Shown here: positions 10,335 to 50,149 of the stretch, one piece after another
Layout: each line of letters opens with the position of its first letter
How positions within the stretch are numbered: the first letter of the stretch is position 1
NCBI GenBank assembly: GCA_045539815.1
Contig: JAZQGC010000002.1
Span: forward strand, 11,794-75,793
DNA length: 64,000 bases
Source: Candidatus Enterousia sp.
Lineage (GTDB): Bacteria > Pseudomonadota > Alphaproteobacteria > Rs-D84
Direction of reading: 5' to 3'
The notes under the pieces: model-generated
Databases searched by the model: none
Told to the model about the DNA's origin: nothing
The model's input: only the letters and a program-made list of their open reading frames with translations
Program-made: the position numbers and the translations under genes

Positions 10335-10361
10335 AAAAAATCCCCATGTGGGGATTTTTTT
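10333..10361. terminator. bidirectional terminator between convergent genes
   Basis: A8-TCCCCAtgtGGGGA-T7 palindrome. Confidence 0.7.
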
Positions 10362-12522
10362 AAATCATCGGTGGGAAACATTCATCCGTTCCATCAACGC
10401 AACACAACATACTGCCATTAACATCTGTTGCTGTTTCGCCCGCGCAACAACCATTTGCATCCGGCGCACTGTTATCTGCGCATACATTTTGTGTATCTGT
10501 TTCGTAATCAGGCGACGCAACAAACATCTTCTCTTGTTGCGACACATTATACACCGGCTTTTCAACCACAGGTTCGCTTTCAACCGCAACCACTTCTTCT
10601 GCAACAGTGTCTGTTGTTACCACAGGTTCTGAAACAACTGTTGTGTCATCCACTGTCTGAATTGCCGCATCCAGGGCCTGAACCAACGTGGCGTCCATTG
10701 CTGTTTCTTCGACAATTGGCGCATCCGGTACAACTGGAACATCAGCCGTTACAGTTTGAACAACATCTGATTCAACCACTTCTGCAACCACAGGTTCTGC
10801 AACTTCTTCTGTTACGCCTGTTTTTTCTTCATCTGCAACACTTACCACATCAATAAACGGCGATTCTGTATCTTCTAGCGTCACAAGATTAACCGTTTCA
10901 TCTGTTGTATCTACATAAGATTCTTTTTCTTCATCGATTTGTACCAACTGTGTTTTTGCTTCCAGCTCAGGCACCATATCATCCGTTACAGATTTTTGAT
11001 ATAACCACAATGTAAACACAGACAAAACAATCAAGACAACCAACATAATATAATAAATTTTTGTTGGCTTATTAGACACAGAATTATCAACAACCACTGC
11101 TTCTTCTGCGATTGGCGAAGCAGGGCGCACTGCATCTTCTGCCACTTTTGCAACAACATGATTGTTTGACACATTATCAGTCGCAACAGTCTTTATATCA
11201 GCGTCCCCCAGCACATCTTCTGCGACCAAGTCCGCTTGTTCTGTTGCAATTGGTGTAAATGTATCTAACACAGGCTTTTCTGTTACATATGTTACTTCTT
11301 CTGTTACGGGTTCCGCCACAGGTTCTGCAATTTCATCAAAAGAAACAGGTGGCACAAACGCCAACGGCTGCACAACAGATTCTGAAACAGTATCACCATC
11401 AGATTTGTTATCTTTGTTCTCAATATCTGTCGGATATTCAGACACAACCTCTGGCAACTTATCAAATAAAACTTCTGGCACGCGTTCTGGAACAACTTCT
11501 GGTAATTTTTCTGTTACAACTTCTGGCAAATGATCCTGGACAACTTCTGGCAATTTTTCTGTGACAACTTCTGGCAAATGTTCGGACGCTGCCTTGGGCA
11601 AAAAAACATCCTGTTCTTCTTCAATTTTTTCTGCATCATCAAACACAGGCACAAAATTAATTCCAATGTCCAATATATCAGAAGCCGACTTTTTAACATC
11701 TTCGCTATTTTCTGTTGTATTAAAATCAATGGGTTTAAACGCAATACCTTCATCCAAAATATTTGGATCCTTGTCAAACAGCGGTTTTATTTCATCGTCA
11801 GCCATATTTTCCACCTTGTTTTTCTGTATTATTTCGTGTGTCTGATTCAATTTATCCAGAATTCCCTGGGCAATTACGGCATCTTCACCAGCCGTGTCCA
11901 ATCTTTTTTTTGCGTTTTGCAAACGCTTTTGCGCACGATTCAGCTTTTCACTTGTCGCATCCATTTGCGCTTCTATGCGTAAAACACGAGATGCCGAACG
12001 TTTTGTTGGTTCTGTTCCAATTGCACGTTTTGCATCAGACAAATCCGCCCGCAATTTTTTTAATTTGTCCTTCATATACACAATGGACTGATTTGTCCTT
12101 TGTATTGTATCGTTTGCATGTACCGCCTGTTCTTCTGCTGCGACCAAACGTTCTTGTGCGATTCGTTTTGCAGACTTCTTATAAAAATCATCCAACTGTA
12201 CCAATATTGCATTTAAATCATCTTGGCCATCATACGCATCAAACAATCTGTCATATATCCCCAGCCCATCGTATTCAATATCCAGTTTCTGATACTTATT
12301 ATCTTTTTTTGGTCTGACCGTTTCTAAATCGACACCATAATCATTAGACAGGATATCATCCCATTTCCTGTCATCCACAGGATTTATTACCAATAAAACA
12401 TTAGGCTTTATATCACTGACTGAAAAATCCAGCACAAACACCAGGTTATTATCATCCTCACTGTAAAACGCGCGCATTGAACGACCCTGGACATTAAAAT
12501 CTGTACTGTACAACTTGTTCAT
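10360..12522 (-). CDS. hypothetical bitopic membrane protein (coiled coil, LPEVV repeats, acidic exported region, C-terminal Cys cluster)
   Basis: 720 aa long ORF. One TM helix (IYYIMLVVLIVLSVFTLWLY). Seven copies of an 8-aa xxLPEVVx repeat. C-terminus CCAGETATDVNGSMLCCVDGTDEC. Confidence 0.7.
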   Translation of the reverse strand: MNKLYSTDFNVQGRSMRAFYSEDDNNLVFVLDFSVSDIKPNVLLVINPVDDRKWDDILSNDYGVDLETVRPKKDNKYQKLDIEYDGLGIYDRLFDAYDGQDDLNAILVQLDDFYKKSAKRIAQERLVAAEEQAVHANDTIQRTNQSIVYMKDKLKKLRADLSDAKRAIGTEPTKRSASRVLRIEAQMDATSEKLNRAQKRLQNAKKRLDTAGEDAVIAQGILDKLNQTHEIIQKNKVENMADDEIKPLFDKDPNILDEGIAFKPIDFNTTENSEDVKKSASDILDIGINFVPVFDDAEKIEEEQDVFLPKAASEHLPEVVTEKLPEVVQDHLPEVVTEKLPEVVPERVPEVLFDKLPEVVSEYPTDIENKDNKSDGDTVSESVVQPLAFVPPVSFDEIAEPVAEPVTEEVTYVTEKPVLDTFTPIATEQADLVAEDVLGDADIKTVATDNVSNNHVVAKVAEDAVRPASPIAEEAVVVDNSVSNKPTKIYYIMLVVLIVLSVFTLWLYQKSVTDDMVPELEAKTQLVQIDEEKESYVDTTDETVNLVTLEDTESPFIDVVSVADEEKTGVTEEVAEPVVAEVVESDVVQTVTADVPVVPDAPIVEETAMDATLVQALDAAIQTVDDTTVVSEPVVTTDTVAEEVVAVESEPVVEKPVYNVSQQEKMFVASPDYETDTQNVCADNSAPDANGCCAGETATDVNGSMLCCVDGTDECFPPMI
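11441..11586. repeat. 24-bp-period tandem repeat encoding (x)xLPEVVx units
   Basis: The plus strand shows repeated acaacttctggcaa(a/t)t units, which translate to EHLPEVVTEKLPEVVQDHLPEVVTEKLPEVVPERVPEVLFDKLPEVV. Confidence 0.8.
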
Positions 12523-12566: not shown

Positions 12567-13178
12567 TTATTTCTTTTTTGGTGGTGCAAATTGATACGCC
12601 TGCTTACAATGTTCATAACAATATGGTTTTCCGACAAAAACGGTTTCACCACAAAAATGAAAATGTTCAGAATCCGGATCCCCAATTGGCCAACGACATT
12701 GATTTGGTTTCAGGTTTGCCATTTCCAAGGAATGCTGAATAATACGCTGATGCATTGCCAGATTTTTTGCATTAGTTTTGACTGTATCTTTTACTTTTGT
12801 TTCTTCTGCGACCGCAACCGTTTTAGCCTTGGTGTTTTTCTTGGTATCATCTGCCTTTACAGGTGCAACTTTTTTGTCAGCCCCTTTTACCGCCTTGGCC
12901 ACAGGGGTTGTTTTTTTAGTTTCTTTTTTCTTAACAGTTGTTTTTGCTGTTTTTTTGGTATCTTTTTCTTTGCCTGCGTCTTTTTTTGCAGTTACTTTTT
13001 TATCTGCCTCTGCGGCCGCAGCGCCGCCAGCCTTGGCATTCCAGCCCAATCTGTTTAACTTACCAACAATGGCGTTTTTCGACATACCCAAACGCTTGCC
13101 AATTTCGGACGTAGACAATCCCTTGCCGGTTAATGCTTTTAATTTTTTTAATGCCGTGGCATCCCAACCCTTACTCAT
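12567..13178 (-). CDS. gcrA: cell-cycle regulator GcrA
   Basis: N-terminus WDATALKKLKALTGKGLSTSEIGKRLGMSKNAIVGKLNRLGW and C-terminus CRWPIGDP...FCG...PYC..HC are GcrA hallmarks. Confidence 0.9.
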   Translation of the reverse strand: MSKGWDATALKKLKALTGKGLSTSEIGKRLGMSKNAIVGKLNRLGWNAKAGGAAAAEADKKVTAKKDAGKEKDTKKTAKTTVKKKETKKTTPVAKAVKGADKKVAPVKADDTKKNTKAKTVAVAEETKVKDTVKTNAKNLAMHQRIIQHSLEMANLKPNQCRWPIGDPDSEHFHFCGETVFVGKPYCYEHCKQAYQFAPPKKK

Positions 13179-13250
13179 TTTACAAAACCCTTGTTATACA
13201 TTATAATGCAATTCTAGCACAAATCCGATTCGAAACGCAAGGGAGAAAAC

Positions 13251-13721
13251 ATGATAAACACCATATTTTTAACAGGACTGTTATCATTGGCGGCATGGCT
13301 GGCATATAAAATATCGGTTGCAGATTTTCGTCGGCGCATTATCCCGGACGCATACCTGTTTCCATTAATGTTAATCGGATTAATAACGACAACATTCTAT
13401 CAAATTCCAACAGATATTGAATCTGGGGTAATTGGCGCTGCTTTTGGATATTTTGTATCTTGTTTTATTGGGTTGGCATATGAATACATTTCCAAACGAC
13501 GCGCACAATCATACGACACACCAATTGGCATGGGGGACATCAAATTAATTGGGGTTGGGGGACTGTGGTTGGGCACAACTGGTTTATCCATTGCATTAAT
13601 AATATCTTGCATTATTGGTGCGTGGTGGGGACGGGCACACAAACAGCGTTTTATTCCATTTGCGCCATTTTTTATTTTTGGCTGTTTTTTGACTTTCATT
13701 AGTTTTGCCTTTTTGTTATAA
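13251..13721 (+). CDS. A24-family prepilin-peptidase-like membrane protein (CpaA/TadV type, no methyltransferase domain)
   Basis: 156 aa and polytopic. First Asp motif RRRIIPD and second motif GMGDIKLIG. Confidence 0.7.
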   Translation: MINTIFLTGLLSLAAWLAYKISVADFRRRIIPDAYLFPLMLIGLITTTFYQIPTDIESGVIGAAFGYFVSCFIGLAYEYISKRRAQSYDTPIGMGDIKLIGVGGLWLGTTGLSIALIISCIIGAWWGRAHKQRFIPFAPFFIFGCFLTFISFAFLL

Positions 13722-15766
13722 TGACTGCACAGGGACCTGAAATGAGAATGAATTTGTCTGTTATTTTCAGCTGCATAATTGGCGCAACATTGTGCATTTC
13801 TGGCGCATATTCTGTGTCGCCTTTTTCTAAATACGGCCAGATTCAAAATGTTCAAACATACTCGTCTAATCCATTTTATAACCAGAATTCGCCATACAAT
13901 CAAACGATGCCACAACCGGTATATGCCCTGGGGCCATCAATCCAAACATCAGATTGCCAATCTGTATTGGCGACATTGGTTGCACAACAATGTTCAATGA
14001 TGAACAATTGTCAAAGCGCCCGCCTGTCTGACATTCGTCCGGCAATAATGTTACAGTTATCACGCATGCCGGGGGGCAACTATGCGACATCATGTTCGGG
14101 CTATCTGGACAGTGCATTTGAAAATTATAAAAAGAATTTTTCATACAACACACCAACTGCGGGCGCGACATTTCCGGCCGCAACCGTTCCAAACCCAAAC
14201 GCTGACGCCGCCAATCCCCAGATAAAAATATTTCCTGACGCGCAAAAGCCACAATGGGCAACAGAAATGGCACAGCGCAAGCAAGAATTAAAAGAATTAC
14301 AGGCTGCATCTGGCGCAAATGATGCGGGATTAGAATACGCAGAATTTCAAAAAACATATGCTGATTTATCTTTCACTGAACGCATGGCGAACGAGGCCGC
14401 CGGCTTTGAACCATACAAGGACAAAAAAGCATACGACACATTAAAAATAGAAAGCGAACAAGAATATCTTGAAAAACAAGCTGCCTTATCACGTATAAAT
14501 TCAAAATCAACAGATTCCAATAATAACACAAAAACAAACGACAACGAAAAGAACCCGAATTTAATAACCGATCATAATTACGACGAATTCGAAGCTTTAT
14601 TACCATGGTATGGAATTTTGGTTGTAAAAGCGGGAAGTCTTGATAAATACGCCGCATTAGATTTACCAATAATATCAACAGAATATATGAAGGCGCATCG
14701 CGATGAATTTTATCCCGCAAATTCGGATCAAACATTCGGTCATGGTTGCACATATTACAATCATACGGCAAACGACAATGATATTATCAATCGCGCAACA
14801 CACAACGTTATGGGCGAAGAAAATAACTTTTTCAGTGGCAGTGATTACTATGTATTTGATGGATCCGATGTCTATTGGGGTTGGCTAACCATAGCAGGCG
14901 AAGTCGCATTAGCCCTGTTGACATTAGGCATATCCGCAGAAGCAAGCGCTGCAAAAACAGCTTTACAAATAACTGATGCCAGTACAAAAACAATTGCTGC
15001 CGCTTCAAAAACCAAAGGACTTATCACTGTTGGTAAACTAACTACTAACGCCGAAAAGTTAAAAAAAGCTGCCGAAGCAGCCAAGGCTGTAAAGGCAGGC
15101 GACGCCGCATCAAAAACCAAGGCAATTGATGCATTGGCAGATGCTGGCATTACTGTAAAAAATACAGCACGACCAGTTACATTTAAAAACATAGCAACGG
15201 CATTAGAAACAGCAATTGCAACAGCAAAACCTGTAAAATGGACATCTTCGTTGTCAAAACCGTGGCGACTGATAAAAAGTGGTGCAAAAGATTTAAAATC
15301 AAACAAAATAGGACGCGGCGTTTCATGGGGAACCAATTTCAAAACCCTTGGGATTACCGCTGCTGGCATTGGTGTTAATTATTATATCAAAGAATTCATG
15401 AAATCATTTGGATACAGCTCATCGATGATACAAGACCCAACAACCGGCGATGTTGCATTTAACAGTTTTGGTCTGTTATCAGATGACGACGAAGAGGGAC
15501 GCGAAAACGTTGTTTCACATGGTGCATGGATACAATTTAACGAAATTGGTACTGCGAACGAAAATGATGCTGTAAATGAAGCTCTTGTTTTTGCTGACGA
15601 ATTAAAAAAAGAAATAGATAAAATAAACGCGTCGGACCCGTTATGTGACATAGATATATATGTTGTACAGCCCGCAATCAGCAACCCTGAAAAACTGCCT
15701 GGGGCCCGCCAAATATATTACATATTGCAAAATGACGATCAAAAAATTCAAGTTCGAACAAAGTAA
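13721..15766 (+). CDS. hypothetical large envelope protein, paralog A (signal peptide, two hydrophobic segments, Ala/Lys-rich loop)
   Basis: The start overlaps the upstream stop (TAATG); the real start may be MRMNL at 13742. Homologous to the next gene across WYGILVV, INRA..N..GEE, YYV.G and CDIDIYVVQP. Confidence 0.7.
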   Translation: MTAQGPEMRMNLSVIFSCIIGATLCISGAYSVSPFSKYGQIQNVQTYSSNPFYNQNSPYNQTMPQPVYALGPSIQTSDCQSVLATLVAQQCSMMNNCQSARLSDIRPAIMLQLSRMPGGNYATSCSGYLDSAFENYKKNFSYNTPTAGATFPAATVPNPNADAANPQIKIFPDAQKPQWATEMAQRKQELKELQAASGANDAGLEYAEFQKTYADLSFTERMANEAAGFEPYKDKKAYDTLKIESEQEYLEKQAALSRINSKSTDSNNNTKTNDNEKNPNLITDHNYDEFEALLPWYGILVVKAGSLDKYAALDLPIISTEYMKAHRDEFYPANSDQTFGHGCTYYNHTANDNDIINRATHNVMGEENNFFSGSDYYVFDGSDVYWGWLTIAGEVALALLTLGISAEASAAKTALQITDASTKTIAAASKTKGLITVGKLTTNAEKLKKAAEAAKAVKAGDAASKTKAIDALADAGITVKNTARPVTFKNIATALETAIATAKPVKWTSSLSKPWRLIKSGAKDLKSNKIGRGVSWGTNFKTLGITAAGIGVNYYIKEFMKSFGYSSSMIQDPTTGDVAFNSFGLLSDDDEEGRENVVSHGAWIQFNEIGTANENDAVNEALVFADELKKEIDKINASDPLCDIDIYVVQPAISNPEKLPGARQIYYILQNDDQKIQVRTK

Positions 15767-15768
15767 TC

Positions 15769-17454
15769 ATGCTGACACGAATTGTTTGTATATTATATTT
15801 TCTCTGCCTTCCTTGGTCAGCTTTTGCAGATTCTGCTGGGACGCCGTGTGCCAGCGCTGTTATTTCAAAAGAAATCGCACAGTCTGCACCAGAAATAGAT
15901 GAAAACACATCCGAACAATCCGTTAAACAATGGATTTATTCCGTTCTGTCAGACAAAACTGTTTTAACCAATGTTTTGAAATGCCCAGAAATTGCGTCTT
16001 TATCCCCAGAAGACACAATTACATTTTCGCCGATACAATTTACTTTTCCAAATGGTCGCGAAATTGTTATAAACTATGAAACGCAACAAAAAATACTGAC
16101 CCAGCGTTTAACAATATCTGAAAAACGCGGCCTGCCATCTGACGATCCAAACCCACGTGTTGGCGACAAGAACGATGACTCTGTTTGGACAAACACAGAT
16201 CCGGCATGGTATGGAATCATGGTTGTTGAATCCGGCGCATTAAATCAATTTGTTGGTCCTGATAAAAACAACACAATATCTGTAAAATACATTAACGATA
16301 ATATTGACACATTATACCCCAGCGGTCTTAATTGCACCAGTCGCAGCGCACTGGCCGAAGATAATTGTGCAATAAATCGCGCGGTTACAAATACTGTTGG
16401 AATCGAAGGCGACACAAACGATTACTATGTTGCCGGCGATATTAACCTGGAATGGATTGGTTACGCTGAAATCGCATTGGATGTCGTTATTACTGTTGCA
16501 ACATTTGGCACCGGCACACTGGCATTGGGGGCTGTCAGGGGCGCACAATCACTGCGTGCATTAAATGGCATGCGCAATACCCTGAAAACATTACGCGCAA
16601 CAGATACCGTTCGTGATTACATAAAATATACGGGTCAGGCAAACAGACTAACCGCAGAATTAAAAACAATTGATCGGGTTGCTGACGCCACAAAATACGC
16701 AGAAAAAACAAAAGAACTGGAAAAAATACAAGACACCGTAAAAACACTAGAAAACGCCGATGATGTAAAAAAATATCGTGAAACATCAAAAACTTTTTCT
16801 GATTTAAATTCATATCGTCATACATTAAAAGGTGCAGAATTCAGAAAAATCCCAAATCGTGGCAACGTCGCGGTCCGCAGTGTTCGTGCCACACGCGCCG
16901 CAGCAAAAACATTAAAAGCCGTAACAACCGGCAACAAATTAATTAAACGCGGTGCAAAACTGGGACGGGCCAGTAAACTATCCACACGCGTTCGCGATTA
17001 TTTATTTCACAGTACATTAAAAACCGCGGGCGTATTAGCAAAAATGCAAATGGCAACCGGCGCAATATACGGCGCCCTGCAAACGGTTGGCGGATTGATG
17101 TACGATTTTACCGAAACCAGTACAGGCGAATTTACCAATGACATTGATTTTAAACCGTTGTTATTGTTGTCTGCCGACGACATCCAGGGACAAGAAGATA
17201 CAATAAACTATGGTATGTGGTTAATGTGGTATGGTGATTCACAAAGCCCCATGGACGATGATGCCGCATATTTACAGGCAATGGACTTTGCGGCAAAATT
17301 CCACGAAGATTTATTGGACATCCAGGAAGATTCCGCATCACCTTGTGATATTGATATTTTTGTTGTGCGACCAATCATACGCAATCCAGACAGCCAAAAC
17401 CCAGAATTATATTACTTGATTATGAACGATACACCATGGACAACACATGACTAG
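15769..17454 (+). CDS. hypothetical large envelope protein, paralog B
   Basis: Signal peptide LCLPWSAFA. Shares WYGIMVVESGAL, AINRAVTNTVG, YYVAGD and SPCDIDIFVVRPIIRNP with the 13721 gene. Confidence 0.7.
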   Translation: MLTRIVCILYFLCLPWSAFADSAGTPCASAVISKEIAQSAPEIDENTSEQSVKQWIYSVLSDKTVLTNVLKCPEIASLSPEDTITFSPIQFTFPNGREIVINYETQQKILTQRLTISEKRGLPSDDPNPRVGDKNDDSVWTNTDPAWYGIMVVESGALNQFVGPDKNNTISVKYINDNIDTLYPSGLNCTSRSALAEDNCAINRAVTNTVGIEGDTNDYYVAGDINLEWIGYAEIALDVVITVATFGTGTLALGAVRGAQSLRALNGMRNTLKTLRATDTVRDYIKYTGQANRLTAELKTIDRVADATKYAEKTKELEKIQDTVKTLENADDVKKYRETSKTFSDLNSYRHTLKGAEFRKIPNRGNVAVRSVRATRAAAKTLKAVTTGNKLIKRGAKLGRASKLSTRVRDYLFHSTLKTAGVLAKMQMATGAIYGALQTVGGLMYDFTETSTGEFTNDIDFKPLLLLSADDIQGQEDTINYGMWLMWYGDSQSPMDDDAAYLQAMDFAAKFHEDLLDIQEDSASPCDIDIFVVRPIIRNPDSQNPELYYLIMNDTPWTTHD

Positions 17455-18493
17455 GGCAGGGGTTTATATTTTATTATTTTATGTGTTTATGACACCAATA
17501 CACGGTGTCGCATCTTTCTTGCAACCTGCGTCATTTCCAAAAACAATCCAAGACACAACAACATTTACCGAACGCATGGAAAACGAACGCATTGGATTTA
17601 TGCCATACAAGGATAAACGCGCATACGACACATTGAAAATACAAACAGAACAAGAATACTTGGACAGTATGATTCAAACTGCCAACGCACGCAACAAACA
17701 AGATCTGGCCAACATGTCTGTTGATGAATATTGTAATAAATATCCACTGGATGCTGAACGTTGTCCGCAAACATCTGGGCAAGAGGCACAAATTATCGCC
17801 AACGCAAATCGCAAACCAACACCCCAAACAATCGCCCAACCAACGGGTACTATTGTTGGCTATGACACTAACGGCATTGCTGTTATCGCCAAACCAAATG
17901 CATATAACGGACCATGCACACAACCACAACACAGCAATTGGTTTTCAAACAAAATATTAAGCACCGGTAAATACGCCGGCATTGACCCTGCATTTGAAAA
18001 AGCAATAATAACAACCTTTCGCAAAGAAGGTGATTGTGTAAACGACCCCGACGATTCGGGCGGATACACATGCTATGGCATATCCCAGAAAAATAATCCC
18101 GAAATTGATGTAAAAAATATAACGCGTGCAGACGCAGAAAATATTGCATATCAAAAATATTACACGCAATACGGATTCAACAAATTGCCCGACCACATTC
18201 GCGGTTCTGTATTTATGTTGGGCTGGAACGCCGGCCCCGTGGTCAGCATAAGACGTTTATGCCGTGTATTGGGGATACCAGAACGCAATGAAATAGACAA
18301 TGATATTATTAACGCCATACATAACTATCCCGGCGATTTACATAATGATTTCATGGATGTTCAACAGAAATTTTATATCGATGCATCGAACAAAAATAAT
18401 AACAAAAAATATTTAAAAGGCTGGATGGAAAGTGTTCGTTTGACACGCGAAAACGGATGTCACACTGAAACGACCACGCCAATCAGACGCTGA
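17447..18493 (+). CDS. secreted peptidoglycan muramidase, GH108 plus PG_binding_3-like, with an N-terminal module shared with the 13721 gene
   Basis: The KEGDCVNDPDDSGGYTCYGIS motif is GH108 type (EGG-VNDP-D-GG-T-YGI). The start overlaps the upstream stop by 8 nt (ATGACTAG). Confidence 0.75.
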   Translation: MTRAGVYILLFYVFMTPIHGVASFLQPASFPKTIQDTTTFTERMENERIGFMPYKDKRAYDTLKIQTEQEYLDSMIQTANARNKQDLANMSVDEYCNKYPLDAERCPQTSGQEAQIIANANRKPTPQTIAQPTGTIVGYDTNGIAVIAKPNAYNGPCTQPQHSNWFSNKILSTGKYAGIDPAFEKAIITTFRKEGDCVNDPDDSGGYTCYGISQKNNPEIDVKNITRADAENIAYQKYYTQYGFNKLPDHIRGSVFMLGWNAGPVVSIRRLCRVLGIPERNEIDNDIINAIHNYPGDLHNDFMDVQQKFYIDASNKNNNKKYLKGWMESVRLTRENGCHTETTTPIRR

Positions 18494-18566
18494 TGATATT
18501 AATTCTTATTGTTTTTTTTATTGTGATTTTTTATAATCATATCATAACATGAAACAGGGGGTATAC

Positions 18567-18884
18567 ATGAAGAAAATAATTACAGCCTTGGCAATTATAA
18601 TTTCAACTGTATATGCGGCAAATGCATATCAGGTATTATCATCCAAAGAATTGGGTAAAAATGATGCAAAAAATCAAAATGTTGTTGTGAAATGCACGAC
18701 AGATACGGGTAAATTATCCAATCAAACATGCTCTTTGCGTCGCTATGCCAAATGTACCGGAAACGGTTCTGCAAAACGTTGCAGCGGTTGGCAACCATGG
18801 CGCGATTTGCGCAATCCATCTGCGCAATATTCTGATTGGCAGGCTGCGGCATCTGCATGCTGTCGGTCCAAGGGATTAAGATAA
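18567..18884 (+). CDS. small secreted cysteine-rich protein
   Basis: Start chosen at MKKIITALAIIISTVYAANA. Six Cys residues in about 80 mature residues. Confidence 0.55.
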   Translation: MKKIITALAIIISTVYAANAYQVLSSKELGKNDAKNQNVVVKCTTDTGKLSNQTCSLRRYAKCTGNGSAKRCSGWQPWRDLRNPSAQYSDWQAAASACCRSKGLR

Positions 18885-18885
18885 T

Positions 18886-18912
18886 AAAAAAACCGCGATT
18901 TGCGGTTTTTTT
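18886..18912. terminator. bidirectional terminator
   Basis: A-run, AACCGCgatttGCGGTT, then T-run. Confidence 0.75.
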
Positions 18913-18913
18913 A

Positions 18914-19198
18914 TTATTGTTCAACCCATATCAATGTTCGACCAGACGCAGCTGTTGTAGAAGGCTGCCCCAGCGAAACAGTATCAAATCTGGTATCGGC
19001 ACCAGACGCAACAGTTGAAGATGTTTGTCCAACTGGCAAACGATTTATATTGACCGTACCAGATGTCAAATTTGACGCATTAGTTGTCTTGCTGAAATTA
19101 TCATCAACATACTTAACGCTGGAAACATCTGCGGCAAAAGCCGGCATAACAAACATACCAATGATTGCAAAAACATGTATCGCTTTTTTTATTTTCAT
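18914..19198 (-). CDS. small secreted protein with a tail-fibre-like motif
   Basis: Start at MKIKK, preceded by GGGGGGAAG. Signal peptide ...MPAFA/AD. Contains LPVGQTSSTVASGADTRFD. Confidence 0.55.
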   Translation of the reverse strand: MKIKKAIHVFAIIGMFVMPAFAADVSSVKYVDDNFSKTTNASNLTSGTVNINRLPVGQTSSTVASGADTRFDTVSLGQPSTTAASGRTLIWVEQ

Positions 19199-19218: not shown

Positions 19219-19635
19219 TTAATTTTCGACATGATAATATGCACCATTATGATACACATTAACATCACCAGATGATTTACCACTGACCAACTTGCTGTAA
19301 CATACGGTACCATTTGACGTTCTGAACGCCAATGCGGGACTTGTTTCCTTGGTACTGTATATATTATAAGATTTACCCGTACCTGTCTTTAACTTGGTAA
19401 TTCCACCGCCACACAATTCAGCAAAGAACATACATATTTTATCTGTGGTATTTGAACAATTTGCAAACATCGTTGTTCCAATCGCAGTTGACCCAGACGG
19501 ACAAGAATCTCCTAATTCAATGGTAATCGCCGGTTTTTCCAACGAAACATATCCAGACGGACAGGTTGCTGCACCTGCAACTGCTGTTGCAAAGCAACAC
19601 AACAAAGTCATAAAAACTGCGGATATTTTATTCAT
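19219..19635 (-). CDS. secreted Cys-rich protein with CPSG modules and the TTPSL-type C-terminal domain
   Basis: Signal peptide MNKISAVFMTLLCCFATAVAGA. The C-terminal ~58 aa align to the C-termini of the 45731 gene and the giant 55878 gene. Confidence 0.65.
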   Translation of the reverse strand: MNKISAVFMTLLCCFATAVAGAATCPSGYVSLEKPAITIELGDSCPSGSTAIGTTMFANCSNTTDKICMFFAELCGGGITKLKTGTGKSYNIYSTKETSPALAFRTSNGTVCYSKLVSGKSSGDVNVYHNGAYYHVEN

Positions 19636-20071
19636 AAAACGCCCCCAGAATCACATTACGAAACGCAACATTTTCACTATTTGACTGATCTGCCAACTTA
19701 CCAGCACATGCCAATGGACAATACTGTAAACAATTTGATGCGTTATTATCATTTGGTTCTGCAAACACCCAACGCGAAACCACCGGTTGAACAATTTTGC
19801 AAAAACAGTCTGTATTTTCATATGGATTTGAACTAATCCACACACTATCTACGGCGCGATTATCTGCATTACCACCATCTTTATGACCACAAACCGAAAC
19901 GCCACGAATCGCAATACCATTACAATTTGAACCCCAATCTGTATGATATTGCTCAGGCGTAATATTTTGACACGCCGTACTCGTATTTAACGCGATACAT
20001 TTTTGAATCGCATACGCAGGCACACTCAATAACACAAACAAACAAAATGCAAATTTTATAGTTCTCATCAT
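19628..20071 (-). CDS. secreted Cys-rich protein, CWC family
   Basis: Signal peptide ...LLSVPAYA. The motif DCFCKIVQPVVSRWVF...C...C...CA is shared with the 44691 and 45239 genes. Confidence 0.65.
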   Translation of the reverse strand: MMRTIKFAFCLFVLLSVPAYAIQKCIALNTSTACQNITPEQYHTDWGSNCNGIAIRGVSVCGHKDGGNADNRAVDSVWISSNPYENTDCFCKIVQPVVSRWVFAEPNDNNASNCLQYCPLACAGKLADQSNSENVAFRNVILGAFYE

Positions 20072-20144: not shown

Positions 20145-20221
20145 TGGTGGATGTGATTGGACTCGAACCGACGACCTCTTCGATGTGAACGAAGCGCTCT
20201 AACCAACTGAGCTACACATCC
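20145..20221 (-). tRNA. tRNA-Val (anticodon CAC), CCA encoded
   Basis: Hand-folded cloverleaf: acceptor GGATGTG/CACATCC, anticodon loop TTCACAT. One C-A mismatch in the T stem. Confidence 0.85.
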
Positions 20222-20276
20222 ATACCACACAGCATATTATAAAACAACCCATACCCCTTGCAAGCATTTTTATTAT

Positions 20277-22256
20277 ATGATAAAATTTACATCAACAACG
20301 ATGGATACAAACATGCAAAAAAACTATTTGATTTTTGACACAAACACAATGCAACAAATTAAAAAGAACTTGCATTACCCGATAAATAATGTACACCCAT
20401 CACTAAAACAACCAACCATAAACACAGAAAGCGTTATCCAAGACATTATAAACCAGCATAACGCGGCTTATCCTGTTGATTTATTCAATAAAATTAATCA
20501 AACACTGCAAAACATCGACACAATAAACGCAGAAATATCAAAGCTTGATGCCCAAGCACAAGACATCAACATAAACCATGAACAATATTTAAATGATATA
20601 GATAAAGTTAAACCAGAAATTACACAAAAATTAGAAACGCTTAAATCTTTCTTTCCAAACAAACAATTTGACAGTATCTTGTCCAACTTTTTTGATTACG
20701 ACAGAATGTTGCGCAACATGCAAAACAACATGGGAACATTTACAAAAATATTTCAATCAAAATCCCGCACCCAAGAATTTGAAAAATTATATTCCGAGAT
20801 TGCAGAACTGGCAAAAGAATTGGGGATATACGACCTTGCCGCCCCAGAAACAAACATCCAATCCAATATACGACAAAACAAAACACAAACAAACACAAAA
20901 CTGAATATCATAAACGAGAAGAAACAAAGATTACAAAACGAACTAAATATCGAACAAAAACAATTAGCGGAATATACCAAACAACATGATATTTTATCTG
21001 ATAAATTACACCAAGACATTGCAGAATTTTTAAACGCATATGAAAATCGCCACCTGTTACGCAAAAATATTCCCGCCACATTAAACATGCAGGGCTTAAA
21101 TGAACCTGTGGCTTTTTTTCAATCAATATCCAATATAACCCCAGAAGAATTAACAACCTTATTAAATCATGCCGGATTAAGGGTCGGATACAATCCATCT
21201 GAATACATCATACGACAATCGCGTACAATCAGTGGCGATCCATGCCTGGAACTGATAACACCGTTTTATTCGCCTGAAAAAGCCAGAAGAAACATAACAG
21301 AAATCATGAAATACTTGGCTGAACATGGCGCAACATTTAACGGTATAATAAAACCCGCCACATATTCACAAATAAACCCATTACCAACACACAATATACA
21401 ACAGACTGATGAAAACAGGGCGCGTATCATACAATACATACAGGAAAAACTACAATCCCCCGACGCACTGGACCGTGATACATTTTATACGCAGTATTAC
21501 ACAAACGACGACCAGAAACAGTACCTTTTTCGTGGCCACACATTTATAACCAGCGACCCAAAATCTTCATACGCAACACCAACATGGCGCCCCGGGCGTA
21601 CGGGCATAGTATATGGAAGCACCGATCCAAAATACGCTGCCAGTTATGCAGGTGGCGCAGATTACGATGGTGTTAACGGCAAGACAATGAATTCACAGCA
21701 TTTATTACACGTAAATAATTATAATGTTGGTTTTGTAACAGTATTTAAAAACAGTAAACGCAACATATTTGTTTCAGATATAAATCTTGAAACCATGGGC
21801 AAGAACAAACATCTTAAACCATCAATAAAAATCAATCAGATGATGAACCATGTTAACGAAACCATTATTTCCCCGCATAACAACCCTGTTGTTGCCAGAT
21901 ACATGGTTGTTGGAAATAAAATGGTAAAAATTGACGACAACGATGAAAAATGGCGCGAAATTATGGATTTTATGGCACCAGATTTAAATATGACCCACAT
22001 AACCAGCTTTAATAAAGAACAGGCTGACCCAACACAAACAACTCACGGACAGGCTTTGATACAACGAATTCAAAACATACAAAACGAAATAGAAAACACG
22101 GGGTCAATCACGACATATGACATACCCGACGAAAATCTGCAAAAACTGGGGTATAAATCCCCAACAGAACAATTTACCAACGGCACAAACAAAATAAATC
22201 AGATGTCAGACATATTATTACACAGAAATATGCAACAATATAATGTTAACGAATAA
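20277..22256 (+). CDS. hypothetical N/Q/K-rich coiled-coil protein with a globular C-terminal domain
   Basis: 659 aa ORF with no signal peptide. Bracketed by tRNA genes. The exact start is uncertain (several in-frame Met). Confidence 0.6.
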   Translation: MIKFTSTTMDTNMQKNYLIFDTNTMQQIKKNLHYPINNVHPSLKQPTINTESVIQDIINQHNAAYPVDLFNKINQTLQNIDTINAEISKLDAQAQDININHEQYLNDIDKVKPEITQKLETLKSFFPNKQFDSILSNFFDYDRMLRNMQNNMGTFTKIFQSKSRTQEFEKLYSEIAELAKELGIYDLAAPETNIQSNIRQNKTQTNTKLNIINEKKQRLQNELNIEQKQLAEYTKQHDILSDKLHQDIAEFLNAYENRHLLRKNIPATLNMQGLNEPVAFFQSISNITPEELTTLLNHAGLRVGYNPSEYIIRQSRTISGDPCLELITPFYSPEKARRNITEIMKYLAEHGATFNGIIKPATYSQINPLPTHNIQQTDENRARIIQYIQEKLQSPDALDRDTFYTQYYTNDDQKQYLFRGHTFITSDPKSSYATPTWRPGRTGIVYGSTDPKYAASYAGGADYDGVNGKTMNSQHLLHVNNYNVGFVTVFKNSKRNIFVSDINLETMGKNKHLKPSIKINQMMNHVNETIISPHNNPVVARYMVVGNKMVKIDDNDEKWREIMDFMAPDLNMTHITSFNKEQADPTQTTHGQALIQRIQNIQNEIENTGSITTYDIPDENLQKLGYKSPTEQFTNGTNKINQMSDILLHRNMQQYNVNE

Positions 22257-22286
22257 AAAAAGCACCAACAACTGTTGGTGTTTTTT
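22257..22286 (+). terminator. rho-independent terminator
   Basis: Hairpin CACCAACaactGTTGGTG followed by T6. Confidence 0.7.
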
Positions 22287-22290
22287 ATCT

Positions 22291-22377
22291 TGGTGGGGAT
22301 AGTGGGACTCGAACCCACACGGTCGCAATGACCAAAGGATTTTAAGTCCTCAGCGTCTACCATTCCGCCATATCCCC
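22291..22377 (-). tRNA. tRNA-Leu (anticodon TAA), long variable arm, CCA encoded
   Basis: Acceptor GGGGATA/TATCCCC, anticodon loop CTTAAAA, 87 nt. Confidence 0.9.
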
Positions 22378-22400
22378 GAAGACTATATTCCCAAAAAATT

Positions 22401-22476
22401 TGGTGGAGCTGATGGGACTCAAACCCACGACCTCTACGATGCGAACGTAGCGCTCTATCAACTGAGCTACAACCCC
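22401..22476 (-). tRNA. tRNA-Ala (anticodon CGC), CCA encoded
   Basis: Anticodon loop TTCGCAT. The G3:U70 alanine identity pair is present. Confidence 0.9.
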
Positions 22477-22485
22477 AAAACTTTA

Positions 22486-22572
22486 TGGTGGGCGTAAGAA
22501 GACTCGAACTTCCAAGGTATTGCTACCACTAGTACCTGAAACTAGCGCGTCTACCAATTCCGCCATACGCCC
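22486..22572 (-). tRNA. tRNA-Leu (anticodon CAG), long variable arm, CCA encoded
   Basis: Acceptor GGGCGTA/TACGCCC, anticodon loop TTCAGGT, 87 nt. Confidence 0.9.
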
Positions 22573-22689
22573 ATAAAGCGAACAAATATTAACTCAAATC
22601 TAAAACAATTGCAACAAGAAAAATTTGATTTTTTTAACTGCTTTTTCACTTGCGCTGTTTTTCATAAATTTGCTAAGATTTTAGCAGAG

Positions 22690-25194
22690 ATGAAGAAAAT
22701 TCTATTTTTACTTGCAAATACCCTTGTTTGCGTTGGTATTGCCAACGCTGCTGTTCGTGATGGAACGGGTACCAAGCGCGCACAAAACACCACTCAATCA
22801 CGCGTATCAACCACGCAACGCGCCACAACTGCGCGCACAACTGTGTTGCCTGCACGCACATCAACAAAAACAACAACCCCGCGCAACGCCAAGGGCACCA
22901 TACAACGCCCAACAAACGACGCACACAACGCGCGTACACCGACAAAATCAACCATCACACGCAGTGCAATAAAATCCGACAAAACAACCACACCCCGTCC
23001 CCAGACTATATCGCGTGCCGCATCAACGGATGCAACGGTCGCACAAACACGCACTGGTGCCGAATACGAAAAATGTAAAACAACATATTTCACCTGTATG
23101 GATCAATTTTGCAGTTTGAAAAATGACGATTTTCGTCGTTGTTCCTGTAATGACCGTGTATTTCAATTGATGGAAACACGCGACACACTGAAACAGGCCG
23201 GCGAACAATTAACCATTTTCAACGAAAATCTAGAGGTTGTAGGCATGACCGCCGCCCAGGCAACGGCCATGAAAACCGCATCCGAAGGGGAAAACGCCTT
23301 GACCGCTGACCAATCCGCATCCAAGGCATTATTACAAGCAATCATGAATTCTATACGCGGCGACGATACAAATGTTGGTGGCAAATATTCAGATCTGAAC
23401 AGTATCAATATAACATTTGATAATGTTAACGCGTTTGGCATGGCTGACACCGGCCAGGCAATTGCCGCATACAATGGCCAGGCCCTGTACCAGGCCGTAT
23501 ACCCACAATGTCGCACTGCGGTTATGTCTGATTGTAATGATGCATCCCTGCAACGCGCAATAACGGCATACCTGATGGCAATTGAACAAGATTGCAACAC
23601 CGTACAAACCGCAATCGAAAACACACAAAAGCAACTGAAATCCGCTGTCCGCGAAGGCAGCGCCATGTTGGATTTGGCACGTATTGAAAATCGCCAAAAA
23701 CATAACTCCACAGATCTGGCAACATGCATCAGCAATATATCCACCGCCATACAAAGCGAAGAGGTATGTGGTGCGAACTATCATAAATGCCTGGACAATG
23801 GCGAATATATCGACATATCTACGGGAAAACCAATTGTTGGTGTAACAGACTTCTATAAATTGGAACAACTGTTGGTATTCAGCGATGGTATCGAGGCTGC
23901 CGAACAAAAACTATCCAAGAATCCAACGAACAAAACCTTTGTTAACAACTTTGTCAGCCGCACAAAAAACTTTGCACTTGACGCATTGGACAAATGCACA
24001 GAACAGGCCGACATTGCATGGTCTGAATATTTGGACCAAGCATTGCTGGATATATACTATGCCCAACGCGCCAAGGTTGCAGAAATCAAACAAGGATGCT
24101 TTGATTTTGTGTCTTCTTGTTATGTAAATCGCAACGATTCCATTACAGACGCAATGAAGGGTCTGACCGCAGACACAACAACAATGATTAATCCTGATAA
24201 AATCATATTAAACTCTGCAATGTGCACAGAATATGTTGATTCTTGCAACAATATGTTCAGCACAGACATCGTCAAAGACTATGTTAACTTACAAACAGAG
24301 ACAGATAATCTAACCGCATGTCGCGCGGTTGTAAAGCGTTGTTTTGATAGATATGGTGGCACCAATTACGAGAATTTCTTTTATCCATACAGCGGTTTGT
24401 TTGAGGCCGGAAAAGCACCAGATTGGTTTACCCTGTACGACACCAAGAACAACACGGACGAAAAAACTTATGTATCCAGATGCGCCCAGGAATTAACTGA
24501 AATTAACGCATGCAACGACACAGAGATCATAGAAAAAACATTTGGCGGATTTGACAAACTGGAAGACGACGTGTATGGCTTGGAAACAGGCAAAGAACAG
24601 CGTCAATTACGTGTAACTGGCGTCGCAACCGAAGTTTATAACCAAATCATATCAACATTAACAACACAATGCCTGAATATATACGGCAGATTTGTTCAAG
24701 CCCAGCATATAGACTCAAACAAATATACAACAGGCAACCTGTGTAGAATAGACAAATCCTATATTCCTGAAAAATTTGGACGGCTCTCTGGACAGGATGA
24801 ATATATATGCCCTGCGAATTATAATATGCAAGTTGACACAGAATCATGGGGCGCATGTCAATGTTGGGAAAACGGCGGTCGCCGCAGTCGTAACGGCAAA
24901 TCCCAACGCTGTGAAGCATTGATGGTTATAGAAAAAGATGTCGATGACACCACACTGGATAACAAAGATGAAACAACCACATTTTCTTGCATAAAAAAAG
25001 AAAATGAAATGTACACATTTTCAAACAACGCAGAGCCCCCCCTGTGGTGTACATTGTCAAACATTAACCCACAAACAAATACCGTGTGTCCAGGCAATCT
25101 AGAAAACACCGGTACACCAGATAGTCCCGAATATACCTGTACAGAAATAGATACAAGCAAAGACGAATCTGTTCCGCCTGGTATTACCGAATAA
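22690..25194 (+). CDS. large secreted cysteine-rich protein with a basic Thr/Arg-rich low-complexity linker
   Basis: Start chosen at MKKILFLLANTLVCVGIANA (signal peptide). About 95 aa are T/R/K-rich with almost no acidic residues, followed by a ~700 aa Cys-rich body. Confidence 0.7.
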   Translation: MKKILFLLANTLVCVGIANAAVRDGTGTKRAQNTTQSRVSTTQRATTARTTVLPARTSTKTTTPRNAKGTIQRPTNDAHNARTPTKSTITRSAIKSDKTTTPRPQTISRAASTDATVAQTRTGAEYEKCKTTYFTCMDQFCSLKNDDFRRCSCNDRVFQLMETRDTLKQAGEQLTIFNENLEVVGMTAAQATAMKTASEGENALTADQSASKALLQAIMNSIRGDDTNVGGKYSDLNSINITFDNVNAFGMADTGQAIAAYNGQALYQAVYPQCRTAVMSDCNDASLQRAITAYLMAIEQDCNTVQTAIENTQKQLKSAVREGSAMLDLARIENRQKHNSTDLATCISNISTAIQSEEVCGANYHKCLDNGEYIDISTGKPIVGVTDFYKLEQLLVFSDGIEAAEQKLSKNPTNKTFVNNFVSRTKNFALDALDKCTEQADIAWSEYLDQALLDIYYAQRAKVAEIKQGCFDFVSSCYVNRNDSITDAMKGLTADTTTMINPDKIILNSAMCTEYVDSCNNMFSTDIVKDYVNLQTETDNLTACRAVVKRCFDRYGGTNYENFFYPYSGLFEAGKAPDWFTLYDTKNNTDEKTYVSRCAQELTEINACNDTEIIEKTFGGFDKLEDDVYGLETGKEQRQLRVTGVATEVYNQIISTLTTQCLNIYGRFVQAQHIDSNKYTTGNLCRIDKSYIPEKFGRLSGQDEYICPANYNMQVDTESWGACQCWENGGRRSRNGKSQRCEALMVIEKDVDDTTLDNKDETTTFSCIKKENEMYTFSNNAEPPLWCTLSNINPQTNTVCPGNLENTGTPDSPEYTCTEIDTSKDESVPPGITE

Positions 25195-49084: not shown

Positions 49085-50149
49085 ATGAAAAAAGTACTTT
49101 CATACACAACCTGCGCCCTGCTGCTTACCGGTATTACCAACACAACCAACGCCACACCGGCGGCAACATACGCAAACAACATTACCACAAACAATATCAG
49201 CGCCCTGCAACACACAATCGTAAACACCGCATTTAACAATCTGCACGGGAACAAAACAACAAATACCACAACCACAAAGAACAACAATTCCCATGACATA
49301 TACGGTCGCGCACCAATGTACGGCACAATGTCCCAATACGGCGAATACAACGACGACGGACGCAGTGGCGGCGACAAAAGCAACGCCGCACTGAACAACA
49401 TACAATTCACATGGCAACACAACGCAGACCGCGTAAAATTTAACGAATTCGCACCACTTGATACCGACTCTGACCTGATACTTGTCAATCTGATTGGGAA
49501 CGAGTATAATATCGGCACAGTAAAAAACACATGGGGAATATACACTGGTTACATTGGCACAACCCAAGAAAACAATCAAATAAACATTGACGAACAAGGC
49601 GGATATTTTGGACTTGCAAACAATTTCAATATACAAAAATTAAACATAAAAACAACAATTAACGCCGGCGCATTGGACAATTCGGTCGACACCACAAACG
49701 GCACAGACGATTATACAAACTTTTGGATTGGCGCCGCCACCAGAATATCATACGATATAAAACTGGACCCTTCATTAATCCTGCGCCCAGAAATATACGC
49801 AGGATACACATGGATTAAATCAGACGACTACACATCCGCATCGGGCCAATTCATAAACAACAGCAATACAAATTCTTTTGAAATAACCCCAGCCATCAAT
49901 ATCACAAAACATGTTGGCAATAATTGGTATTGGACATTGAACACAAAATATATAATCATTACCAACAACGACAAAAACATAATCGTAAACAATACAAAGT
50001 TAAAAGAATTAGATATTGGAAACTTTTTTGAATATGGTTTAACCATAAACAAACAGTTTGATAATACAGATTTTTCCATCAATATCGGCCGACACGACGG
50101 CGACAGATATGGTTGGTTTGGCGGATTAAATATGCGCTATATATTCTAA
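49085..50149 (+). CDS. outer-membrane beta-barrel protein (autotransporter beta-domain-like, minimal passenger)
   Basis: Signal peptide ...TNTTNA, alternating beta-strand pattern, and a C-terminal ...GGLNMRYIF with terminal Phe. Confidence 0.6.
   Translation: MKKVLSYTTCALLLTGITNTTNATPAATYANNITTNNISALQHTIVNTAFNNLHGNKTTNTTTTKNNNSHDIYGRAPMYGTMSQYGEYNDDGRSGGDKSNAALNNIQFTWQHNADRVKFNEFAPLDTDSDLILVNLIGNEYNIGTVKNTWGIYTGYIGTTQENNQINIDEQGGYFGLANNFNIQKLNIKTTINAGALDNSVDTTNGTDDYTNFWIGAATRISYDIKLDPSLILRPEIYAGYTWIKSDDYTSASGQFINNSNTNSFEITPAINITKHVGNNWYWTLNTKYIIITNNDKNIIVNNTKLKELDIGNFFEYGLTINKQFDNTDFSINIGRHDGDRYGWFGGLNMRYIF

Follow-up and report, generated by a model that had tools for sequence, protein, structure and literature searches.

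Several described systems offer points of comparison for bacterial loci that combine membrane proteins with enzymes acting on the cell wall. FtsEX docks EnvC, PcsB or RipC via an N-terminal helical module, and the Salmonella muramidase TtsA relies on a holin. Conserved gene frames with a variable cassette are known from polymorphic toxin and effector loci and from the pilin-allele locus of Pseudomonas aeruginosa, and A24 peptidases are, to our knowledge, otherwise known solely as class III signal peptidases. SagA of Brucella, an alphaproteobacterial muramidase, opens the wall for a machine (PMC8334348). Here we describe a five-gene operon at positions 13251-18884 of a 64 kb stretch (hereafter, the window) of contig JAZQGC010000002.1 from Candidatus Enterousia, order Rs-D84, which encodes, in order, an A24 (GxGD) peptidase, two paralogous large proteins (the products of gene A and gene B), a GH108 muramidase (gene 4) and a protein with six conserved cysteines. 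We tentatively read it as an envelope module specific to Rs-D84, in which an inner-membrane and periplasmic scaffold would dock cell-wall hydrolases, and not as a pilus, a phage remnant or a type-10-like exporter; this is our preferred explanation, held with rather less than even confidence. As far as family searches can tell, A24 and GH108 are known families while B, the adaptor X, the various Y cassettes and the six-cysteine protein are not, and the combination of genes matches no described system and would thus be a new kind of envelope module. A literature search found no description of this locus.

The Rs-D84 bacteria (Enterousia) are widespread in animal and human guts, have genomes of about 1 Mb that lack standard transporters and a large part of central metabolism, and presumably live off partner cells. 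We know of nothing that has been reported on the workings of their envelope. The block described here is among the few gene sets of these genomes that are both lineage-wide and lineage-specific. Their genomes measure 0.75-1.0 Mb and lack flagella, type IV pilus genes were reported only for another lineage in the Rs-D84 survey, and the bacteria have been proposed to depend on partner cells (PMC12306168).

The conservation of the block was assessed in 83 fetched loci, three of them near-duplicates, in which B is present in 83/83 by construction. A short shared module (MOD, see below) occurs in 81 of these loci, the six-cysteine gene in 79, the A24 gene in 76, a divergent gcrA gene in 74 and, next to gcrA, the gene of a 720-residue protein (p720) in 73. 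The earlier note on this DNA had made synteny of the gene set a test, and the block is indeed syntenic in about 80 related species. Since these inner genes are kept and the outer flanks are not (trigger factor 25/83, thyA 18/83), the conserved unit runs from p720 to the six-cysteine gene, although no six-cysteine gene was found within 10 kb in two full-length loci. Judged by gene content, its core consists of the A24 gene, X, a variable Y, B and the six-cysteine gene. Relatives of B are encoded in 281 species-representative genomes, and the fetched genomes are labelled as Candidatus Enterousia, Alphaproteobacteria or Rickettsiales metagenome-assembled genomes from animal, human and termite guts. 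In a collection of 5.8 billion proteins the relatives of B form more than 900 clusters, all unnamed. A B profile matched only 138 clusters among 1.84 billion 50% representatives, which indicates that the family is confined to the Rs-D84 lineage, and the same search returned zero relatives outside the family and zero informative domain fusions.

The strongest functional clue at the locus is a portable tag that is carried by unrelated wall hydrolases and by an adaptor. Residues 204-258 of the gene A product and 25-80 of the gene 4 product are 49% identical (BLASTP E 4e-16), and a hidden Markov model of this module, MOD, finds exactly two copies in the window, in gene A (E 2e-25) and in gene 4 (E 1.6e-24). 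Across the sample, MOD stands at the end of X in 70 loci, and in 19 it immediately follows the signal peptide of a GH108 muramidase; X-MOD-GH108 fusions occur in six loci and X-MOD-Y fusions in five loci and the window, and these two kinds of fusion lend indirect support to a docking role. In three further cases (L017, L033 and L078), MOD precedes an M23 endopeptidase (Pfam PF01551, E 1e-21 to 1e-23) in open reading frames (ORFs) of about 335 aa near the operon, with the HxxxD and HxH motifs intact. We predict that MOD is a portable tag that targets muramidases and M23 peptidases. A 357-aa MOD-tagged ORF for another exported protein, on the minus strand of L066, is without a family match; by eye it has a GxND-like block and resembles SGNH esterases.

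Gene 4 itself was taken in the earlier note for a Sec-exported GH108-type muramidase, and both its match to Pfam Glyco_hydro_108 (PF05838, E 1e-17) and its signal-peptide-like hydrophobic start agree with this. It also matches the endolysin family phrog_315 (E 2e-33) and, in the PDB, 2IKB, 7DNP (SagA), 6V3Z and 6V40; aligned to 2IKB, the catalytic Glu motif and the D-x-GG motif read kEGd...DdsGG against hEGG...DPGG. The peptidoglycan-binding-like C-terminus is only partly borne out, in that the PDB alignment extends across residues 183-330 but the PG_binding_3 match stays below threshold (16.5 bits against 24.6). The catalytic part is of the same GH108 and PG_binding_3 type as in SagA (7DNP) and the TtsA family (6V3Z, 6V40). 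SagA has a C-terminal membrane anchor (PMC8334348), whereas gene 4 has a cleavable-looking signal peptide and an N-terminal MOD. Unlike in those systems, type IV secretion, toxin or holin genes were not recognised near the operon (holins among ORFs of at least 60 aa only), and the conserved block can do without the muramidase: only 28 of the 83 loci contain the GH108 catalytic domain and the other 55 lack it, which makes the enzyme an accessory member.

The 681-aa and 561-aa products are paralogous, as had been claimed before (BLASTP E 1e-31, 27% identity over 429 residues). B consists of a signal peptide, an acidic N-domain, a hydrophobic helix at 235-253 with E234 and D238 invariant, a basic helical region, a Gly-rich segment at 421-445 and an acidic C-domain. 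Its basic loop of about 170 residues carries a net charge of +22 and the flanking domains -15 and -21. Each flanking domain has one cysteine (C189 in the N-domain, C526 in the C-domain) that is invariant in both paralogues, and this pattern would fit a periplasmic location of both domains. The earlier note had pictured each protein as two hydrophobic segments around a basic loop, with two periplasmic domains. In both proteins the first segment is strong (Kyte-Doolittle 1.68-1.79) and the loop basic, but the second is weak (below 1.2) and Gly-rich; the basic loop, the acidic flanks and the invariant cysteines speak for a hairpin of this kind, the marginal hydrophobicity of the second segment against it. 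A topology with two periplasmic domains is plausible for B and its paralogue on these grounds. The AlphaFold 2 (AF2) model of B has a mean predicted local distance difference test (pLDDT) score of 71, with a confident N-domain (26-225), helical region (257-350) and C-domain (460-561); for gene A the value is 68, and a three-helix Cys domain of X (71-140) and the Y domains are confident.

That the two large proteins could not be recognised from their sequences is upheld by family, PDB and Foldseek searches, which assign them to no family or fold described so far. Pfam, NCBIfam, PHROGs and PADLOC gave zero matches for A, B, X, the Y types, the six-cysteine protein, p720 and p861, an exported protein encoded further downstream. 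Foldseek, run with the AF2 models of A and B on the PDB and with that of B also on BFVD, returned nothing below E 0.7, and the gene A model found no fold match. PDB sequence searches with single sequences and profiles returned only YmcA/RicA, at E 0.26-0.62, for residues 286-358 of B. This region (window ~16624-16842) gives three independent weak signals of a YmcA/RicA-like helical bundle, none of them significant: the PDB profile matches just mentioned, the top Foldseek match 6PRH (E 0.94) and a homologue, P0107, that is annotated as YmcA family. We treat the RicA likeness of B, its top Foldseek match, as coiled-coil noise.

The description of the locus as encoding two paralogous membrane proteins does not hold as a general trait. 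It is specific to a sub-lineage. Gene 2 is X fused to one of at least four interchangeable cassettes. In relatives gene A is split into genes of 311 + 497 aa or 301 + 395 aa, with the adaptor X of about 300 aa followed by a separate middle gene, Y. At least four cassette groups with no detectable mutual similarity occupy the slot between X and B, and the type found in the window (nine loci and the window) is the sole paralogue of B (hhalign probability 99.9%, E 3e-36). The other Y types were considered as remote homologues of B and rejected (hhalign probability 1.8-4.3%); the Y1 motif '...DIDMY.G' resembles 'CDIDIFVV' of B by eye only. Every Y group keeps a signal peptide and a Gly/Ala-rich hydrophobic hairpin. 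On a neighbour-joining tree of B, the Y types are dispersed among close relatives, and species with X, B and six-cysteine proteins that are 76-90% identical differ by cassettes with sharp borders. In one such pair, L062 and L070, these three proteins are 86-89% identical and the stretch between X and B is without any similarity. The slot is hypervariable, with cassettes exchanged between close relatives. In this the locus resembles the known variable-cassette loci, which likewise combine a conserved frame with one slot for mutually unrelated genes and sharp borders between close relatives; it differs in that no recognisable toxin, immunity or pilin domain is among the matches, in that there is as a rule one variable gene per locus and in that every cassette is a signal peptide with a Gly/Ala-rich hairpin. 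A swappable Y suggests a structure that meets a variable outside partner, and the slot may mark where these cells meet a changing outside world. Matches of Y-type proteins to SseC and to the Bfe1 type VI secretion effector family are below threshold and are leads only.

The first gene of the operon matches the A24 family with 58.6 bits (cut-off 26.5; E 9e-16) and no NCBIfam model, and its product has about five hydrophobic segments. The catalytic pair, Asp25 (within ADFRRRIIPD) and the Asp of GMGDIKL, shows no variation among 73 orthologues, and the active site is intact. The gene is present in 76 of the 83 loci, the remaining seven all being cut upstream by a contig end, and it invariably opens the operon, lying 20-35 nt from X and behind a conserved promoter. 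With TadV and CpaA it shares the Pfam family, a length of about 155 residues without the N-terminal zinc/methyltransferase part, and the two catalytic motifs (D...IPD and GxGD). It differs from them in matching no NCBIfam model, in being co-transcribed, by prediction, with exported proteins of Sec type instead of class III, and in its surroundings: Flp pilin, TadE/F, CpaF ATPase and secretin were not found in the operon, the window or related loci. The earlier observation that no pilin, Tad or type II secretion ATPase or secretin accompanies the gene extends to the roughly 40 larger ORFs of the window that were scanned, among which, as among the called genes of related loci, there is no secretion ATPase, platform protein or secretin. 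Six-frame scans of the window and of six related loci found no Flp or type IV pilin motif, and neither the operon nor the window nor these six loci contain a class III signal peptide; the N-termini of the operon products look Sec-type. A prepilin-peptidase-type protease without a pilin could reveal a new class of GxGD substrates. Two candidate substrates were considered. Cleavage of B at K-N-[I/A]-G421 | x-L-[G/A]-K-[M/L]-E is rated unlikely because no more than 60 of 72 B-type sequences have Gly421 and because of the segment that follows it, which is not hydrophobic and has Lys at +4 and Glu at +6. Cleavage of p720 before its conserved N-in transmembrane helix is unsupported, as the -1 residue varies (L, M, A, F and others), with no conserved Gly or Ala.

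The last gene encodes the best-conserved member of the operon, with identities of 65-87% where B shows 50-62%. All six cysteines and most residues of the mature protein are invariant in 77 orthologues, and the charge is strongly positive (18 K+R against 5 D+E). Its relatives form 516 clusters, all of about 105 aa and unnamed, with zero Pfam or PDB matches. A role as a lysozyme inhibitor of the PhiA/MliC kind was rejected: there is no MliC-type match, and the protein is kept where GH108 is absent.

All five ORFs lie on the same strand at the positions given before, and a single conserved promoter drives these tightly packed genes (Table 1). Both promoter hexamers are kept across an alignment of 47 orthologous spacers. 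The previously described junctions are all present, namely TAATG between genes 1 and 2 (13719-13723), TAA, a 2-nt gap and ATG between gene 2 and gene B (15764-15771), and the overlap ATGACTAG between gene B and gene 4 (17447-17454). Gene 2 probably starts at Met8 (13742), a residue that hardly varies in the alignment; the TAATG overlap may therefore not be the start in use. A bidirectional terminator had been placed only after 18884, and this is what we find: the hairpin there has a folding energy of -15.5 kcal/mol (z = -5.66; 0/200 shuffles fold as well) and is flanked by A and T runs on both sides, while terminator-like matches inside the operon do not exceed shuffles (12 against 8.3 +/- 3.1). 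All four products other than the protease have signal-peptide-like N-termini.

Table 1. Coordinates of the operon, its regulatory elements and its conserved neighbours in the window
Feature	Position	Strand	Description or match
p720	10360..12522	-	ORF; no Pfam/NCBIfam family; conserved neighbour, in the syntenic block, outside the operon
gcrA	12567..13178	-	cell-cycle regulator, divergent from the operon; Pfam GcrA E 8e-29
Promoter	13179..13207	+	sigma-70-like, TTTACA-17 nt-TATAAT; 11/12 consensus matches, best of the region
GANTC (GATTC)	13227..13231	.	CcrM methylation motif in a conserved 5'-untranslated block, 24 nt before gene 1
Gene 1, A24 (GxGD) aspartyl peptidase	13251..13721	+	156 aa, short, TadV/CpaA-like size; Pfam PF01478
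Gene A (gene 2)	13721..15766	+	681 aa; fusion of adaptor X (~1-262) and a Y cassette of the B-paralogue type (~290-681)
MOD in gene A	14318..14503	+	putative docking-type module of ~60 residues at the C-terminal end of X; consensus FPTTYADLSFTERMENAAAGYEPYKDKSAYKTIKIESEEEYL
Gene B	15769..17454	+	561 aa; conserved large protein
Gene 4, GH108 muramidase	17447..18493	+	348 aa; Sec-exported, accessory member
MOD in gene 4	17510-17704	+	followed by a linker
Catalytic part of gene 4	~17975-18460	+	GH108 and peptidoglycan-binding part
Six-cysteine exported protein	18549..18884	+	small, basic, mature ~85 aa; probable start Met7 at 18567
Intrinsic terminator	18883..18915	.	symmetric (bidirectional) hairpin, shared with convergent minus-strand genes

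The gcrA gene, adjacent to and divergent from the operon in 74 of the 83 loci, is separated from it by a spacer of 72 nt (13179-13250) whose sequence is strongly conserved and whose length is 71-73 nt in 47 of 65 loci. In other Alphaproteobacteria GcrA acts through GANTC, the motif that CcrM methylates. This motif stands at a fixed offset in 65/65 orthologous spacers, where about 0.17 would be expected per spacer (background 0.0024 per bp). An invariant CcrM-type site in this place would tie the locus to the alphaproteobacterial cell-cycle circuit and suggests that expression of the operon is timed by the cell cycle. On the far side of gcrA, p720 combines an N-terminal cytoplasmic coiled-coil, disordered acidic repeats (PEVV), a single strong transmembrane helix at 489-507 and an acidic periplasmic tail; the helix is nearly invariant, (I/L)YY(I/V)ML..LI.LS.FTLW.YQ, and the end of the tail is conserved as CC...CC...CFPP(L/M)x. 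This layout recalls polar organisers such as PodJ.

How might these parts act together? These organisms are uncultured, and the mechanism that we propose is deduced from sequence alone. In our preferred reading, B and Y would be anchored in the inner membrane, with their acidic domains facing the periplasm and the basic helical region of B the cytoplasm, and B with the variable Y would form a scaffold together with the adaptor X. MOD would act as a docking tag through which X and the hydrolases are recruited to this scaffold or to the adjoining wall, and we propose that such docking lets the cell cut its own peptidoglycan locally and in a controlled way, perhaps following a SagA- or VirB1-like logic in which the wall is opened for an envelope-spanning machine. 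The GxGD protease probably processes one membrane-anchored component, the basic six-cysteine protein probably binds the acidic periplasmic domains, and the GANTC site next to gcrA would time expression to the cell cycle.

The closest parallel to such an arrangement is FtsEX with EnvC, PcsB or RipC. Here, too, a membrane protein would expose a large domain to the periplasm and a further part to the cytoplasm, and there are exported hydrolases and adaptors with a helical module right after the signal peptide, whose docking on the membrane protein is known for FtsEX and conjectural for our locus; an M23-type enzyme is among the partners, and X would take the place of EnvC as a non-catalytic adaptor. 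The likeness appears to lie in functional logic only. Sequence and fold similarity is zero, no operon product matches an FtsX or ABC family, and an ABC ATPase is absent; B, with its signal peptide and putative N-out hairpin, contrasts with the four helices of FtsX; the GxGD protease and the six-cysteine protein are without counterparts in FtsEX; and one subunit of our locus is swapped between species. By the features that define FtsEX, SagA or VirB1, the module belongs to none of them. If it should turn out to serve ordinary wall housekeeping, it would still be a new way of tethering autolysins.

A number of observations weigh against a hydrolase-docking scaffold. The second membrane segment of B is marginally hydrophobic and is not modelled as a helix, which makes the topology of B uncertain. 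Docking of MOD on B or Y is suggested only by fusions and by shared architecture, and MOD could instead bind peptidoglycan directly. No substrate of the A24 protease was found in the operon, the window or the six loci scanned for class III signal peptides. Hydrolases are encoded at the locus in only about one third of the species, so that the conserved function may not need them, or they may be encoded elsewhere. Replacement of Y by non-homologous cassettes between close relatives is unusual for housekeeping remodelling of the wall and more in keeping with a system for interaction or antagonism. Regulation by the GANTC site may concern gcrA instead of the operon, and in reduced genomes gene order can persist without functional coupling.

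The unusual behaviour of Y is best accommodated by a polymorphic module for interaction with, or antagonism of, partner cells, in which Y would serve as a swappable payload that acts on membranes or binds receptors, the MOD-tagged hydrolases as exchangeable effectors against the wall of the other cell, and B, X and the six-cysteine protein as a conserved core for delivery or display. At least four unrelated Y types, patchy on the B tree and sharply bordered where X, B and the six-cysteine protein are 76-90% identical, are what such a system would produce; the hydrolase payloads (muramidase, M23, esterase-like) are likewise patchy and modular, all Y types have Gly/Ala-rich hydrophobic hairpins, and the sub-threshold SseC and Bfe1 leads point the same way, as does the partner-cell dependence proposed for Rs-D84 (PMC12306168). 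We nevertheless consider it unlikely, since no variable immunity gene lies beside Y or the hydrolases, the block has no outer-membrane conduit, ATPase or other energy source, and hydrolases with ordinary Sec signals would meet the producer's own wall first; moreover, the block belongs to the core genome, with the same location next to gcrA in all species examined, and PADLOC and toxin-domain searches are without a match. A bolder synthesis, which we regard as doubtful, would make p720-gcrA|A24-X-Y-B-six-Cys a new envelope apparatus of partner-dependent Alphaproteobacteria with reduced genomes: a cell-cycle-timed, membrane-anchored platform, matured by a GxGD protease recruited from pilins, with tag-loaded, interchangeable wall hydrolases and an exchangeable membrane-active Y that is shown to the other cell. 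Such an apparatus, if real, would amount to a new system for delivery or contact whose payloads are polymorphic. It is also conceivable, if rather improbable, that there is no single system, the A24 gene being a leftover or stand-alone prepilin peptidase for pilins elsewhere and the six-cysteine gene equally unrelated, both merely packed beside an X-Y-B wall module. The tie of these two genes to X, Y and B consists of adjacency and a common promoter and terminator, synteny is stable in reduced genomes, with the clearly unrelated gcrA just as conserved in position, and we know of no other role for A24 peptidases than that of class III signal peptidase; yet the A24 gene is found in all 76 loci that reach that far, always first and 20-35 nt from X, the flanks beyond the block are not kept, and no pilin-like motif was found in the window or the six loci. 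Type IV pilus genes, too, are reported only from a different lineage (PMC12306168).

Type-10-like export was among the parallels drawn in the earlier note; the GH108 enzyme would open the wall so that Sec-exported periplasmic cargo, for example the six-cysteine protein, leaves the cell. The relation of the GH108 domain to TtsA-family proteins (6V3Z, 6V40) and to Brucella SagA (7DNP; PMC8334348) is in keeping with this, and so is the small exported protein encoded directly downstream of the muramidase. We find this muramidase-centred reading very improbable, because GH108 is missing from 55 of the 83 loci when the six-cysteine gene is present in 79, and because the enzyme, with a Sec-type signal peptide of its own and MOD at its N-terminus, does not follow the holin-dependent pattern. 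No holin- or spanin-like gene was recognised among ORFs of at least 60 aa (smaller ORFs were not searched), no toxin- or chitinase-type cargo was recognised at the locus, and there are no phage-derived neighbours. A degraded prophage lysis cassette, composed of an endolysin and membrane proteins, has in its favour the phrog_315 match of the muramidase and is effectively refuted by the rest of the evidence: the operon has no other PHROG match, no phage genes were found in the 64 kb window, the block keeps the same chromosomal place in about 80 species with conservation at the protein level, and relatives of B are absent from 2.9 million viral contigs of IMG/VR and from the folds of BFVD. With the large proteins in no described family, the gene set syntenic in related species and no sign of a prophage, the suggestion that this is an undescribed envelope module stands.

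The neighbouring genes of the window are of housekeeping type and include TolQ, RuvB, a two-component pair, trigger factor, ThyA, GcrA, LpxA, LpxB, an M23 peptidase, MurJ and an RlpA-like protein, as well as LeuRS, glycosyltransferases, a release factor, HisRS and transketolase; phage, pilus, type II and type IV secretion genes were not found among the scanned window ORFs. Convergent with the operon and sharing its terminator, two small Cys-rich exported proteins of 138 and 147 aa are encoded at 19219-20071 (minus strand); they are without a family match, and their position is kept in only 2-4 of the 83 loci. At 20145-22572, the stretch of lowest GC content in the window (0.358), a 659-aa ORF (20277-22256) lies amid four tRNA genes. 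It has only weak matches of coiled-coil type, and as homologues occur in only 3 of the 83 loci, it may be a strain-specific insertion. The protein p861 (22609-25194, plus strand) is an 861-aa Cys-rich exported protein with no family match; 47 of the 83 loci have a homologue at most 10 kb downstream of the operon, and in the complete genome that holds locus L045 it is about 1.3 kb downstream, with one opposite-strand gene between. Further away, an autotransporter beta-domain protein is encoded at 49085-50149 and, at 55878-61664 (minus strand), a probable surface protein of 1928 aa that contains four Listeria-Bacteroides (Flg_new) repeats. In one Enterousia relative (L001-L003), a Cas9-like gene (HNH, RuvC_III, Cas9_RuvC) lies about 9 kb downstream of the operon, some 20.7 kb into the locus, which is worth noting in a genome of about 1 Mb.

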